A model generated the notes under the pieces. That model worked only from the letters and a program-made list of their open reading frames with translations, searched no databases and was not told the origin of the DNA. Source: Actinomycetes bacterium (GTDB taxonomy: Bacteria > Actinomycetota > Acidimicrobiia > Acidimicrobiales > JAJZXF01). Taken from it: a DNA stretch of 61,964 nucleotides. Made by a program: the position numbers and the translations under genes. Where the stretch lies: the NCBI GenBank assembly GCA_021802485.1, contig JAJZXF010000006.1:1-61964 (forward strand). Direction: 5' to 3'. Numbering within the stretch: position 1 is the stretch's first letter; the number at the start of each line of letters is the position of its first letter. Shown here piece after piece: positions 1 to 61,738 of this stretch.

Positions 1-2
1 TG

Positions 3-698
3 TCGAATCTCACACTCGCTTGTGAGGGTTGCAACAATGCCAAGGACAACCTCTCTATTGAGGTGTTCCTCGCCAAAGACCCGAAGCGGTTGGCGAAGAT
101 ACTCGCTCAAGCGAAGGCCCCACTCAAAGATGCTGCTGCTGCTGTCAACGCTATCCGCTGGGCGCTGTGGCGGGAGTGGGTGACCACGGGGCTTGCGGTA
201 AGGACCGGATCGGGCGGGCGTACCAAGTGGAACCGCAGCCGGTTCTCCACACCGAAGTCCCACACACTTGACGCACTGTGTGTAGGAGACGCCAACCGCG
301 TTGGCTCGTATCCGCTTGGAACGATTACAGCTAAGTCAACAGGTCGTGGGTCCTACGCGCGCACTCGAAGCGACAAGTACGGTTTCCCTCATCTTCGCCT
401 GCCTCACACGAAGATGCACCACGGTTTTGTCACTGGGGATCATGTACAGGCAGTTGTGTCAAGAGGCAAACACGCGGGAACTCATATTGGCAGGGTAGCC
501 GTGCGTTCAAGTGGGAGTTTCAATATCAGAACGAAAGGAGAAATTGTGCAAGGAATCAACTACCGCTACTGCGCTCTCTTACAGCGCGGTGACGGTTGGG
601 AATACGAACGGGATAACGAGGTCGGGTCTCTGGCCCGAATGGGACTATCCCTCCCTACGGCTAGAGCCGCGGGTTTCTCGTCCCACACCCATTTCTGA
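3..698 (+). CDS. iscB: RNA-guided endonuclease IscB (HNH/RuvC), 5'-truncated by the window edge
   Basis: The frame is open from position 3: SNLTLACEGCNNAKDN (end of HNH, CxxCN), then LKDAAAAVNAIRWAL, TGSGGRTKWNR, KSHTLDALCVG (RuvC-III) and GRVAVRSSGSFNI...LLQRGDGW, all typical IscB C-terminal motifs. Confidence 0.9.
   Translation, partial: SNLTLACEGCNNAKDNLSIEVFLAKDPKRLAKILAQAKAPLKDAAAAVNAIRWALWREWVTTGLAVRTGSGGRTKWNRSRFSTPKSHTLDALCVGDANRVGSYPLGTITAKSTGRGSYARTRSDKYGFPHLRLPHTKMHHGFVTGDHVQAVVSRGKHAGTHIGRVAVRSSGSFNIRTKGEIVQGINYRYCALLQRGDGWEYERDNEVGSLARMGLSLPTARAAGFSSHTHF
641..697 (+). mobile_element. Right end of IS200/IS605-type IscB element (subterminal hairpin)
   Basis: gggac...cctacggc-taga-gccgcggg...gtccc nested imperfect hairpin at the 3' end of iscB, followed directly by ATGA at 698-701. 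Confidence 0.7.
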
Positions 699-1321
699 TG
701 ACGGCAGCAAGACAAGCTGGGACGGAACAACCTTCGCACCAGGGCGTCAAGGCACCAAGGCCCGAAAAGGCTGCGGTGGTTGAGGAGGTTAAGCAGGGTT
801 TCGCCGGTGCGCAGGCGGCTGTCCTCACCGAGTACCGGGGACTCGGCGTTTCCGAGATGGCTGAGCTCAGGCGATCTCTGGGTGAGGCGGGGGGAAAGTA
901 CAAGGTCTTCAAGAACACGCTCGTGCGCCGTGCCCTAAGGGACATGGATCTCGACGGAATCGACTCCCTGCTCGCTGGCCCTACCGCGATCGCGTTTGCA
1001 AGCGACGACGTCACCGCAGTTGTGAGGGTGCTTAGGGACTTTTCGAGGCAAAATCATGCGCTTGTGATCAAGGGCGGGGTGTTGGGAGACAGCGTTCTGG
1101 CGGGTCCAGAGACCTTGAAACTAGCTGATCTTCCGTCGCGTGACGTAGTCTTGTCTCAACTCGCTGGTGCTTTCACTGCACCGATTCAGCAGGTTGCAGG
1201 GCTTTTTGCTGCGCTGCCGCGGTCGATCGCCTATGGGGTCACTGCTCTTGTATCAAGCCTGGAACAGGACGCATCCAACCCAACAGCTGGGTCCGAGCAA
1301 AGCGGTGAGGGTGAAGGCTAG
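698..1321 (+). CDS. rplJ: 50S ribosomal protein L10
   Basis: PRPEKAAVVEEV, TEYRGL, YKVFKNTL, LADLPSR motifs; lies upstream of rplL. Confidence 0.96.
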   Translation: MTAARQAGTEQPSHQGVKAPRPEKAAVVEEVKQGFAGAQAAVLTEYRGLGVSEMAELRRSLGEAGGKYKVFKNTLVRRALRDMDLDGIDSLLAGPTAIAFASDDVTAVVRVLRDFSRQNHALVIKGGVLGDSVLAGPETLKLADLPSRDVVLSQLAGAFTAPIQQVAGLFAALPRSIAYGVTALVSSLEQDASNPTAGSEQSGEGEG

Positions 1322-1418
1322 CGTCAAGCATTTAAACCCATAAGTCAGCTAACAAGCTGGAAAAGACCTAATCCCAGCAATTTCGAGAACCGAGAAGACA
1401 AGAAGGAGTAACACAACA

Positions 1419-1841
1419 ATGCCAACGAAGACGACATCAGATGCGAGCCTCTCCAGCGAACAGCTCTTGGATGCGTTTGCGAACATGACCCTGATCGAGC
1501 TGTGTGAGTTTCGCGACGCCTTCGAAGAGCGATTTGGCGTGACCGCGGCCGCTCCGGTAGTTCTTGGCGCAGGCGTTGCGGGAGGGCCCGGCGGCTCCGG
1601 CGAACAAGCGCAGGCCGAGGTCGAGGAGCAGACAGAGTTCGACGTGATGCTAGTCGGGGCCGGAGAGAAGAAGATCCAGGTCATCAAGGAGGTACGTACG
1701 CTTACTGGCCTCGGCCTGAAGGAAGCCAAGGATCTCGTCGAGAGTGCGCCCAAGGCGGTTCTCGAGAAGGCTTCGAAGGATGATGCCGAGAAGGCGAAGG
1801 CAAAGCTGGAGGAGGCTGGGGCCGCCGTCGAACTGAAGTGA
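1419..1841 (+). CDS. rplL: 50S ribosomal protein L7/L12
   Basis: [41 protein letters not shown]; AAGGAG RBS upstream. Confidence 0.98.
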
Positions 1842-1990
1842 AGCACCCTGTTGGAGGCGGTGGTCTGTGGGCGCAAGCTTGGCCGCTGGCCTTTAGCGGA
1901 CCAGCCGCGACATCGCTGCGGCGATACGTGCCCGGCAAGCAGCTCTCTGCTTCTTGCACAGAGCTGTACACACCCGCCGGAGAAGTCGCA

Positions 1991-2019
1991 TTGCGCGCCT
2001 GATGATTACAGGCTAGAAT
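1991..2019 (+). promoter_or_regulatory. Candidate sigma70-type promoter for rpoBC
   Basis: TTGCGC-17 nt-TAGAAT in the rplL-rpoB spacer. Confidence 0.5.
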
Positions 2020-2157
2020 AACTATTTGCCGTGGTCACGTGTGATTCTGTCGCGATATCAAACAGATAGTTGTCGCGCGCCCTTGCTTATGCCCGTCCGA
2101 CCGTGAGGTCGGGCAAAGATCTCGCTCTCAAGCGATAGCCATCCCACCTCGAGGAGT

Positions 2158-5100
2158 ATGTCGTTGCCTTCACGTTTCATGAGCCCCGAACGCTTTTCAT
2201 TTGCCAACCTCGACGAGGTGCTGCCTCTGCCTGATCTCGTATCGGTTCAGCGTTCGTCGTTTGCATGGTTCCTCGAAAGAGGCCTTGCGGACGCGTTCGC
2301 AAGTCTGAGCCCGATAGAGGACTATAGCGGGCAGCTCCGACTGGAGTTGGATTTCGATCCGACTGATCCAGATCTGAGGCCTGAGCCTAAGTTCAGCGTA
2401 GAAGAGTGCCGGGAAAAGGACATGACCTACGCGGCGTCCATCTTTGTTCGAGCGCGCTTCATGAATTCCCAGACCGGAGAGATCAAGGAACAGACGGTCT
2501 TCATGGGCGACTTTCCCATGATGACGTCCAAGGGTACCTTCGTTATCAACGGTACCGAGCGGGTCGTCGTGAGCCAGCTGGTGCGGTCTCCTGGAGTGTT
2601 GTTCCAGCCTGGGCGGGATGTGAAGACGGTCGCGACGGGGACGATTCATCCCTACAGAGGTGAATGGATCGAGTTCGACGTTGAGGCAAAGCCCGGGAAG
2701 GACGTCACGGCAGGTGCGCGGGTCGCACGCAAGCGCCGCTTGTCGATCTTCATGCTCTTGAAAGCGCTCGGCTTCGAGGACGATGCGTTCTTCGAGCGTT
2801 TCGTGGGACACTTTGATTTCCTTGAGGCGCAGTGGAGGAAGGAGGCCGAGGGTCTTCCTGACCGCGACGGCGCTTTGATGGAGATTTACAGGCGTGCGCG
2901 GCCAGGCGAGCCGCTCGCCCTCGAGGCAGCACGCGGCTACTTCGAAGGTTCCTTCTTCAATCCGAAGCGTTACGACCTCACGCGGGTTGGCCGTTACAAG
3001 CTCACTCGCAAGCTGGCGCCTGAAATAGCAAAGATCTCGGAGATCTTGGGGGTAGAACTTCCGCTTCCCGATCCGGCTCAGAGCGTCCTTTCATCCAGCG
3101 AGATCCTTGCTGCGGCTACTTACCTATTGCACCTAGCGAAGGGTGAGCCAGGATATCGTCTCGACGACCAGGACCACTTTGCCAACCGGCGAGTGCGCAG
3201 TGTCGGCGAGCTGATTCAGAACCAGGTGAAGCTGGGTCTCTCTCGGATGGAAAGGGTCGTCAGGGAGCGGATGACGACTCAGGATGTCGAGACAATCACC
3301 CCTCAGGCGCTCATCAACATCCGCCCTGTGGTGGCTGCGATGAAGGAGTTCTTTGGCACCAGCCAGTTGAGCCAGTTCATGGACCAGAACAACCCCCTGT
3401 CCGGTCTTGCGCACAAGCGTCGCCTATCTGCACTTGGACCGGGTGGCCTCTCAAGGGAGAGGGCTGGCTTTGAGGTACGTGACGTGCACACGTCTCACTA
3501 CGGTCGCATGTGCCCGATCGAGACACCAGAGGGGCCGAACATTGGGCTCATAGGCGCGCTGGCAACATATGCGCGGGTTAACGAGTACGGCTTTATCGAG
3601 ACTCCATATCGCAAGGTGGTCGACGGCGTTGCGGTCGATGAGATCGTCTATCTGGCTGCAGACGAGGAGGAGGAGCACGTCATAGCTCAGGCCAACGCGG
3701 CGATTGACGCAACGGGTCGCTTCATCGAGGATCGCGTGCTTGTTCGAAGGGGTCCTCAGGGTGCGAGCGTCAGGGTGGGCGCGACTTCGACATCGTACGG
3801 TACGACTAGCGAGGTGGATTACGTCCCGCCGAGCGAGGTTGACCTCATGGACGTATCGCCGAAGCAGATCGTGTCGGTCTCGACGAGCCTCATCCCCTTT
3901 ATTGAACACGACGACGCGAACCGTGCACTCATGGGGGCCAACATGCAAAAGCAGGCGGTCCCGCTTCTTGTGCCGGAGTCGCCGTTCATCGGCACGGGTG
4001 TAGAGGCCTCTGTCGCGCGGTATGCGGGCGAGGTCATCATGGCAGAGGGGAATGGAACTGCGGTCGAGGTGTCAGGCGACCGGATAGTGGTGGAGTACGA
4101 ACCTTCCCAGCGCGACGGGAACGGTGTAGAGCTTGGACGCCGTAGCTACAAGTTGGAAAAGTTCCGACGTTCGAACCAGAACACCTGCATCAATCAGAAG
4201 GTGGTGGTTCAAGAGGGCCAGAAGGTTACAAGCGACACTGTTCTCGCCGATGGGCCAGCGACCTACCAGGGGGAGCTTTCTCTCGGTAAGAACCTCCTGG
4301 TGGCCTTCATGCCCTGGGAGGGGTATAACTTCGAGGACGCGATCATACTTTCCGAACGCCTTGTGAAAGACGACGTGTTGACGTCGATCCATATCGAGGA
4401 GCATGAGGTGGATGCGCGCGACACAAAGCTCGGAGCAGAGGAGATCACCCGTGACATCCCGAATCTCTCCGAGGAGGCGCTCGCGGACCTTGACGATCGG
4501 GGGATCATTCGCATCGGAGCCGAAGTTGGGCCGGGCGACGTCCTGGTGGGCAAGGTAACGCCAAAGGGTGAGACTGAGCAGACTCCTGAGGAGCGACTAC
4601 TCAGGGCGATCTTCGGCGAAAAGGCGAGGGAGGTCCGCGACACCAGCTTGAAGGTTCCCCACGGAGAGTCCGGAAAGGTGATAGACGTTCGCGTCTTTTC
4701 CCGCGAGGACTCCCATGAGCTCTCGCCGGGAGTGAACCAACTTGTAAGAGTTTACGTGGCTCAGCGGCGCAAGATTTCTGAGGGAGACAAGCTGGCTGGG
4801 CGCCACGGAAACAAGGGCGTGATCTCAAAGATCCTGCCGGTCGAGGACATGCCTTTCATGGCTGACGGCACTCCGGTGGACATCATCTTGAACCCGCTCG
4901 GTGTTCCGAGCCGGATGAACGTGGGTCAGGTCCTCGAGTCGCATCTTGGTTACGCGGCACGATGGGGCTGGGACGGCGCGGTGGGTACTCGCGGATCGAG
5001 CGCTGAGGACCCGAAGGTGAGGACAGCTCCTCGCACCGATCCCGCTGTGTGGGTCTCCACTCCGGTGTTCGACGGTGCGCACTGGGATGAAGAGGACAAG

Positions 5101-52781: not shown

Positions 52782-53212
52782 TTACTGCGGGATTTTCTGG
52801 CGAGCAATGTACTCGGAGATGACCGACAGAGGCGCACCACCACAGGACCCTGCGGAGTACGACGGCGACCAGAGGTGTTCTTTCCACAGGAACTTCGAGA
52901 TGCGACGGGGGAACTCTTTTCTCAGGATGCGGGCCGACACGCGCTTTGGGAGGTTCACGAGGATAGAGATCTGCACAGTGGGTGGATACTAGACAAGCAG
53001 ATGTACGTGGTCCTCCACGACGTTGAACTCAGTGAGGGTTGTGTGACAAGTCCTCGCAGGTTTCCAACATGGGTCTCGTGACAACGAGGAAGGTTCTTCG
53101 CGAAGGCACTACGTCAGTATTTGGTCACAAATGCCAAGTGGACATGAAGATTCGATACCTGAGATCGGCCTGTTGTGTATATGAGGGTCCGGTATCCAGT
53201 GTGGTGATACAT
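52782..53212 (-). pseudogene. tnpA: IS200/IS605 TnpA (Y1 transposase) pseudogene
   Basis: GRSQVSNLHVHLAFVTKY* (premature stop), frameshifts, then LWSPSYSAGSCGGAPLSVISEYIARQK; homologous to 61312-61738. Confidence 0.88.
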
Positions 53213-61311: not shown

Positions 61312-61738
61312 TCACAACGGGCCCTTCTGCTGGTCTATGTACTGGGCAATAACCGAAAGAGGCACCACCACAGGACCCGGCGAAGTACGACGGCGACCAG
61401 AGGTGTCCTCCCTATAGGAACTTGGAGATGTGACGGGGGACCTCCTTGCGCAGGATTCGCGACGATACTCCCTTCAGCGAGTTCACGAGGGTAGAAAGTC
61501 TGACGGTTGGCGGATAATGAACCAGCAGGTGAACGTGGTCCTCCTCGCCGTTGAACTCGACCATTCTGGCACCGGAATCCTCGCAGGTATCGGCCATGAG
61601 CTGGTGGCAGCGGGTAAGGATTGGCCCGGTCAGCGCTCCTCGCCGGTACTTGGTCACAAAGACCAAGTGGACATGAAGGTTTGAAACCTGGGAACGACCT
61701 CTACGGATATTAGGGTCCGGTACCCAACGCGGTGACAC
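61312..61738 (-). pseudogene. tnpA: IS200/IS605 TnpA pseudogene
   Basis: LHVHLVFVTKYRR, EEDHVHLL (HUH), NSLKGVSSR; TAG at 61412-61414 replaces Trp; the downstream HLWSPSYFAGSCGGA and frameshifted QYIDQQ (catalytic Tyr) are cut off. Confidence 0.9.

Follow-up and report, generated by a model that had tools for sequence, protein, structure and literature searches.

The rplJ locus and the 3′ end of the element

The window, by which we mean the whole stretch of DNA analysed here (61,964 nucleotides, nt), is the entire contig C74 of an actinomycete genome of the order Acidimicrobiales (GenBank assembly GCA_021802485.1; hereafter G000), a metagenome bin of 2.86 Mb in 152 contigs (97% complete, 61% G+C), the assembly of which breaks at the repeats of a transposon encoding the RNA-guided nuclease IscB. 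The window begins with the 3′ part of one such element, which ends directly in front of the start codon of rplJ, the gene for ribosomal protein L10. The iscB part (3–698, + strand) consists of the last 231 codons and the stop codon TGA (696–698); it was delimited from its open reading frame (ORF) and by alignment with intact IscB proteins, according to which it encodes the second half of the HNH domain, RuvC-III and the C-terminal domain. It is followed by rplJ (698–1321, +; 207 codons), the product of which gives the only match in the genome to Pfam Ribosomal_L10 (2.7e-26), by rplL for L7/L12 (1419–1841, +; identified with Pfam), which has a Shine–Dalgarno (SD)-like AAGGAG 10 nt 5′ of its ATG, and by rpoB and rpoC. 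The gene rplA, which like rplJ is present in a single copy in G000, lies upstream on another contig, C97.

As a preliminary description of this DNA had stated, the iscB stop codon overlaps the rplJ ATG (698–700), which can be read directly from the sequence. The four bases ATGA (698–701, +), comprising the rplJ start codon plus one base, are at the same time the target site of the transposon and its presumed target-adjacent motif (TAM): they follow nine of the ten copies of the element end in G000, form the start of rplJ in the related genome G001 and agree with the published target N|ATGA. Across the 19 in-frame codons from ATG 698 to the conserved P-R-P-E-K of L10 there is no alternative ATG or GTG, as had been described, and no TTG either; the next candidate, GTG 776–778, lies inside the conserved part. 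In 23 of 29 relatives from the order, the rplJ start lies three codons ahead of P-R-P-E-K, and an N-terminal extension of L10 is limited, among those compared, to the genus of G000 and a few others. The further claim that neither an SD nor an L10 leader stands in front of this ATG also held, in that the 20 preceding nt are almost purine-free and contain no purine run, and in that Rfam returned no RNA family for window positions 1–3000, the omegaRNA being located on another contig. No sigma-70-like promoter or intrinsic terminator was found in positions 1–1500, and a leaderless start or an internal promoter for rplJ was rejected because this region contains no promoter-like site.

The 3′ boundary of the element follows from the comparison of ten copies of its last 70–170 bases in G000, among which similarity is lost exactly after the equivalent of position 697. 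The next bases are ATGA in nine copies and ATGC in one, and the flanks of the copies share only ATGA. The target is likewise ATGA for an intact element in another bin (locus L057) and for two copies in the genome G064, a third copy in G064 having GTGA. The terminal structure comprises hairpin A (622–638, +; 7-bp stem, 3-nt loop), in which one pair is changed on both sides in two copies, hairpin B (639–686, +), of the IS200/IS605 subterminal type with an outer GTGGGAC/GTCCCAC stem and an inner stem-loop, and the last 11 bases of the element (687–697, +), which end at the limit of similarity among the copies. The inner stem of hairpin B shows covariation, and a hairpin nearly identical to this stem-loop is present at the element 5′ ends. 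Both hairpins were obtained with RNAalifold from ten aligned copies (the 3′ ends of G000 plus one end from another genome), giving 28 pairs, six of them with compensatory changes. As the single-sequence fold is not exceptional (z = −1.81 with DNA parameters, eight of 200 shuffles being as good; z = 0.00 for RNA), the support for the hairpins comes from conservation and covariation among the copies. The hairpin that had earlier been placed at 641–684 therefore corresponds to the core of hairpin B, but it is not immediately followed by ATGA, as the 11 bases 687–697 still belong to the element. Subterminal hairpins are found at both element ends, with neither terminal inverted repeats nor target duplication.

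The protein encoded by the iscB fragment is 71% identical to the intact IscB of L057, and an alignment that also includes the intact IscB of G064 has 98 invariant columns, among them HNH C..C..N and RuvC-III H..D. The ratio of nonsynonymous to synonymous substitution (dN/dS) between the window and L057 is 0.13 over the core, which indicates purifying selection. IscB proteins are characterized by a split RuvC domain, an arginine-rich helix (Pfam RRXRR), an inserted HNH domain and a TAM-interacting domain at the C-terminus. On its own, the 231-residue fragment gave no match in Pfam or the PDB; the sibling copy on contig C22 matches Pfam RRXRR (3.5e-45) and the PDB IscB chains TbaIscB (8.6e-31) and OgeuIscB (1.5e-7). 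Complete sibling copies are about 1.8–2.1 kb in length.

The upstream half of the element and the empty site

The sole rplA of G000 ends with a stop codon at C97:565–563 and is followed by a leader of 266 nt ending in GAGGAGAC, after which the 5′ end of an element extends from C97:296 to the contig end. The Rfam family HEARO (RF02033) matches C97:296–38 over all 211 model positions, with 93.6 bits compared with a gathering score of 83, and the match starts at the first base of the element; only two of the nine HEARO matches in G000 lie above the gathering score. The 5′ end of the element is present in ten copies, eight of which start with GTCAAC and two with CCCAAC, each with a different flank. 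The upstream continuation predicted in the preliminary description, namely the rplA leader together with the omegaRNA, was thus found on C97. The pairing of C97 with C74 rests on the conserved rplA–rplJ gene order and not on sequence, and no contig end overlapping either of them was found in G000.

The uninterrupted arrangement is present in G001, an element-free genome of the same genus, in which rplK, rplA, the leader, GGAGGAGG, 6 nt and an ATGA-initiated rplJ follow one another on contiguous sequence. This IscB is absent from G001, where the sole match is weak (1.3e-4). The C97 flank aligns collinearly with the G001 leader; 30 nt of it remain past the last aligned block, compared with 35 nt before the ATGA in G001. 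On the other side, rplJ aligns with that of G001 from codon 15 onwards. The comparison that had been proposed, of the left flank joined to ATGA with a relative lacking the element, therefore gives a matching leader, an SD and an ATGA-initiated rplJ without interruption. The 3′ junction at 697/698, the 5′ junction at C97:296 and the empty site of G001 agree with the earlier view that the element lies between the leader with its ribosome-binding site and the start codon. Moreover, the HEARO scaffold is immediately preceded by the SD region of the rplJ leader, in line with the suggestion that the guide of the omegaRNA would be the rplJ 5′ untranslated region. From these sequence comparisons, we consider it highly probable that the element is placed, to the base, between the SD and the start codon of rplJ.

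Several points weigh against so simple a placement. The reconstructed spacing from GAGGAG to ATG is only 2 nt, whereas G001 has 6 nt at this place. The middle of the element (approximately IscB residues 1–370) is unassembled, and the window begins at a contig end; contig ends in G000 carry eight left and five right ends of such elements. The copies could thus have recombined with one another, or the element at rplJ could be nested or carry a deletion.

An internally deleted copy on contig C102 (1–350, −) has the first ~33 bases of the 5′ end joined straight to the middle of iscB. It was considered as the missing middle of the rplJ element and was not adopted; it ends about 25 codons before the window start, and the identity levels do not decide whether it belongs here. 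Two miniature derivatives (C8:21464–21781 and C107:8937–9137) consist of ~140 nt of the 5′ end and ~170 nt of the 3′ end with no iscB, and the frame across their boundary is open for 75 and 124 codons, respectively. A segment of the leader, GCCCGCC(T/C)GACGAGGCG, is conserved before rplJ in many genomes of the order (L024–L047) and is common to G000 (C97:297–562, −), G001 and G011. The Rfam L10 leader was found in neither of the two loci scanned, C97 of G000 and the corresponding locus of G001. In L057 (1957–2232) and also in the copies on C22 and on C9 of G064, the IscB frame continues without a stop codon in the 5′ direction across most of the omegaRNA region and starts there with a GTG or ATG behind AAGGAGGTG, which lengthens it by about 90 codons (to 585 codons in L057 and to 534 and 545 codons elsewhere). 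The additional codons may represent a genuine N-terminal extension or an upstream ORF, or may have arisen by chance.

Possible routes to L10 synthesis

The genes rplJ and rplL are essential, and in the bacteria that have been studied they are controlled through their leader. In G000 a transposon of 2 kb separates the leader and SD from the rplJ start, and the organism represented by this 97% complete bin, with its single rplJ, is evidently viable. The explanation that we favour, with a probability of roughly 55%, combines an IscB–omegaRNA insertion at the rplJ start with L10 synthesis via coupling to iscB. A non-autonomous IscB–omegaRNA (HEARO) element would have inserted at N|ATGA, which here is the rplJ start codon. 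By analogy with the published mechanism of the family, its guide would be taken from the last ~16–20 nt of the leader, with ATGA serving as the TAM; were a Y1 transposase to excise the element, IscB would cut precisely the restored SD–ATG junction and thereby drive re-copying of the element. The omegaRNA, iscB and rplJ–rplL would be transcribed from the operon's own upstream promoter, and ribosomes on the iscB frame would unwind both terminal hairpins, terminate at UGA (696–698) and restart at the overlapping AUG (698–700) within UGAUG. rplJ would need ribosomes supplied in this way because its SD has been lost, and termination–reinitiation would be the simplest route because there is no promoter, terminator or SD in between.

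The coupling part, in which rplJ would be translated by ribosomes handed over from the iscB frame, has about an even chance of being correct. The frame across the boundary is open for 40–231 codons in all ten copies in G000, ending at the overlapping TGA in six and at the TGA inside ATGA in four. The intact IscB ORFs of L057 and G064 (copies in L059 and L060) stop in the TGA of the target, and in the closest metagenomic group the frame likewise ends in one or the other of these two ways. The iscB part in the window is open and under purifying selection, while the full-length siblings on C22 and C73 are both frameshifted, which we counted in favour of coupling.

On the opposite side, the tail of the iscB frame has a dN/dS of ~0.8 over 26 codons and is thus without constraint as a protein, and the openness of the frame in related copies could be due in part to chance or descent. 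Coupling to a transposon nuclease gene may also be too weak to provide L10 in ribosome-like amounts, and the one contig from an RNA library covers only 1000–1150, away from the junction. In many wider relatives, IscB stops 0–20 codons after its last motif, often in a hairpin loop and far from the host start (for example dnaA in L104), and yet such elements occupy the starts of dnaA or yidD. As the host genes behind these early-stopping IscBs are presumably still expressed, coupling cannot solve the problem in general.

The occupation of dnaA and yidD starts by early-stopping relatives equally suits an alternative in which the insertion is as described and L10 arises from fresh initiation, which appears possible but clearly less probable than coupling. 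Initiation could then use a bridged ribosome-binding site, in which the hairpins would bring an SD-like purine motif at the 5′ foot of the folded transposon end close to the host ATG, an SD-independent start on the unstructured, pyrimidine-rich last 11 bases, or a mini-ORF. The candidate for the latter, read from the sequence and speculative, comprises 19 codons in the iscB frame from ATG 639–641 to TGA 696–698 (639–698, +), behind GAGGT (617–621) and hairpin A; other copies have GTG at the position of ATG 639. In most relatives, the end structure is closely preceded by a purine motif of the type AAAGGAG(G), and the consensus of the copies in G000 has GGGAGGAGG before hairpin A. In a reading by eye of L080, L087, L107, L115 and L122, 7–11 nt separate the 3′ foot of the structure from the host start; minimum free energy (MFE) folds give a closed end structure in L087, L115 and L122 and a different pairing of the foot in L080 and L107. 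A 110-nt end remnant without iscB also precedes a 393-codon ORF at C97:29475. In the rplJ copy, however, the motif is weak (ACGAGGT) and is paired in the fold with DNA parameters, the RNA fold of the window is no better than those of shuffled sequences (z = 0.00), and the purine motif may instead serve the transposase or encode IscB residues.

It is improbable that the inserted allele is only one of several, or that the element is often excised, with L10 being made from an intact SD–ATG site. The fragmentation of the metagenome bin into 152 contigs at these repeats and the presence of 27 Y1 transposase matches in the genome would be compatible with such a mixture, as would the depth in public run X1 of 4.3 over the junction compared with 8.2 over the 3′ part of rplJ, although such depths are not comparable. 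However, the single rplJ and the single leader of the genome each adjoin an element end, and an empty site should be cut by IscB carrying this guide. The evidence from public runs consists of assembled Logan contigs, and no loose end before position 698 occurs among the 18 listed of 31. Sequence specific to this copy of the element is present in runs of three studies, and in the runs of the two other studies it was recovered over 218–700 with one difference. An independent Logan contig from X1 reads through 672–926 without difference, with 26 bases on the element side, which is under the 31-base rule. Parts of 706–893 are uncovered in runs X4 and X6, which proves nothing. A shift of the rplJ start to GTG 776–778, which would shorten L10 by 26 residues and make the iscB overlap irrelevant, is very improbable, since this next canonical start with AAGG 5 nt before it would remove the conserved P-R-P-E-K-A-A kept in all relatives compared, since the same GTG with its purine stretch is ordinary coding sequence in relatives and since the corresponding position in G001 has an ATGA start preceded by a strong SD.

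If coupling to iscB is true, it would explain the frequent occupation of start codons by ATGA-targeting IscB/IsrB elements, would provide a selective reason to keep iscB open and would offer a simple testable system for element-dependent translation. We tentatively envisage, with a likelihood well below that of the coupling at rplJ itself, a subclade of IscB in which the frame is extended through the transposon end, with a stop on or supplied by the target/TAM. Such an element might settle between the SD and ATG even of essential genes, such as rplJ here and dnaA and an rpoD-like gene in wider relatives, without silencing them, and host translation would come to depend on an open iscB, a kind of 'addiction' against iscB decay on top of RNA-guided re-homing. 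For annotation, the absence of an SD from genes behind such ends has a known cause, and the omegaRNA guides can be interpreted as former ribosome-binding sites.

Start-codon sites elsewhere and relation to known elements

The arrangement at rplJ recurs in G000, where three of the ten 3′ ends adjoin the first codon of a long ORF on the same strand, namely rplJ, purD and the 393-codon ORF. In purD the Pfam domain GARS_N covers residues 1–95 on profile positions 1–100, and purD of G001 starts at the same residue with GTGA; the G001 homologue of the 393-codon ORF, which belongs to no Pfam family, starts at an ATGA. In the two other genomes (L057 and G064) the arrangement is found at all four elements. 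The intact element of L057 is situated between an AddB-like gene and a gene for a UvrD-type helicase, with the iscB stop within the helicase ATGA, and all three copies in G064 lie on starts, those of genes for an aminotransferase, a Wzy_C protein (GTGA) and a small ribbon-helix-helix (RHH) protein. In G000, 312 of 17,444 ATGA sites (1.8%) provide the first start codon of an ORF with 200 or more codons, compared with 3/10 element ends (p of about 6e-4), this null model ignoring the purging of intragenic insertions; the excess measured against non-disruptive sites only is probably modest.

Metagenomic relatives were collected from 65 loci, of which seven without a C-terminus, two that were nearly flankless, seven duplicates and 16 with an unplaceable end or a flank of less than 300 nt were dropped. 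On curation of the remaining 33 by eye, an ORF of at least 70 codons starts exactly at the target ATG or GTG in 13 and not in 20, three of the latter lying 14–44 nt upstream of a start. In a control, 313 of 891 [AG]TG[AG] sites in the downstream flanks (35%) also open an ORF of at least 70 codons, and 13/33 is not an enrichment (binomial p = 0.36). ORF length was therefore rejected as a measure of enrichment, and Pfam N-terminal completeness was relied on instead: the 13 include YidD, DnaA and a LytTR response regulator, each complete at the N-terminus, as well as an rpoD-like sigma factor and a solute-binding protein, while five belong to no family. What can safely be stated is that these elements often come to rest at start codons and are tolerated there, as a target containing ATG or GTG would lead one to expect.

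In metagenomic loci L096, L101, L121 and L133 the element is located 14–44 nt before the likely start of a galE-like gene, an unnamed ORF, clpP and a 242-codon ORF, respectively, and the target ATGA or GTGA overlaps or just precedes the host SD. The 3′-end remnant of ~110 nt, lacking both iscB and omegaRNA (L055:568–679, corresponding to C97:29367–29478 of G000), lies between the TGA of an upstream gene and the ATGA of the 393-codon ORF, and its frame continues in phase after that TGA.

The element is an ordinary ISC/IscB element of the IS200/IS605 superfamily with the published N|ATGA target; its type is already known, and its most noteworthy features are its position on the rplJ start codon and the iscB frame running into the target. 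ISC transposons are described as having 5′-GTCA ends, subterminal hairpins, no target duplication and the target N|ATGA (Kapitonov, Makarova, Koonin 2016, PMC4810608). The present element resembles ISC1-1_MA, ISC2-1_HM and ISC2-1_MS in its 5′ GTCA, its subterminal hairpins, the lack of inverted repeats and of target duplication and its insertion directly 5′ of ATGA, and resembles ISC transposons in general in having iscB as its single gene, mobilized in trans by Y1 transposases. Unlike those described in PMC4810608, it has the rplJ start codon as its target, and its iscB frame reaches the last bases of the element; start codons are mentioned nowhere in the main text of that paper. The preliminary description had called ATGA a characterized TAM of IscB. 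In the portions of the literature consulted, this is correct for N|ATGA as the ISC/IscB target (PMC4810608) and for the related IsrB, for which NTGA/ATGA TAMs and cutting at ATGA have been shown (Hirano et al., PMC9581776), but a measured ATGA TAM for IscB proper was not found there.

The guided homing of IS200/IS605 elements by IscB–omegaRNA (OMEGA) systems was reportedly addressed by Altae-Tran et al. in 2021. In a later report on OMEGA systems, the omegaRNA is located at the transposon end upstream of iscB, and co-orientation with the upstream gene is preferred (Meers et al., bioRxiv 10.1101/2023.03.14.532601). The element at rplJ shares with the systems presented there an omegaRNA upstream of iscB bounded by the transposon end, a presumed guide derived from the flank and a presumed TAM that equals the target at the other end; it differs in that its predicted guide is the ribosome-binding region of an essential operon. 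To HEARO RF02033 it corresponds by a full-length match from its first base, with no difference found; the main text of Weinberg et al. 2010 (PMC2864571) makes no mention of HEARO. In the literature searched, neither the location of IscB elements at start codons nor their coupling to host genes is described.

The overlaps between iscB and the host gene are the same as those of coupled UGAUG/AUGA gene pairs, but here they are produced by a transposon insertion, with the stop at or supplied by the target. A comparable case may be the mycobacterial interspersed repetitive units (MIRUs), which Supply et al. in 1997 reportedly described as small intergenic mobile repeats with short ORFs overlapping the stop and start of their neighbours. 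Like the present element, they would be mobile inserts placed where two genes meet, with a frame that stays open up to the next start codon, and are said to differ in being repeats of 40–100 bp with no nuclease and no guide RNA.

A scan of the class found this type of IscB in two of 401 genomes including G000, and a scan of genome contigs gave one related locus only. Candidate transposases acting in trans are available in G000 itself, in which 26 of the 27 Y1_Tnp matches exceed the cut-off and several are without stops. Two Y1 (TnpA-type) matches lie inside the window, at 52797–53057 (−) and 61358–61687 (−), each with one in-frame TAG.

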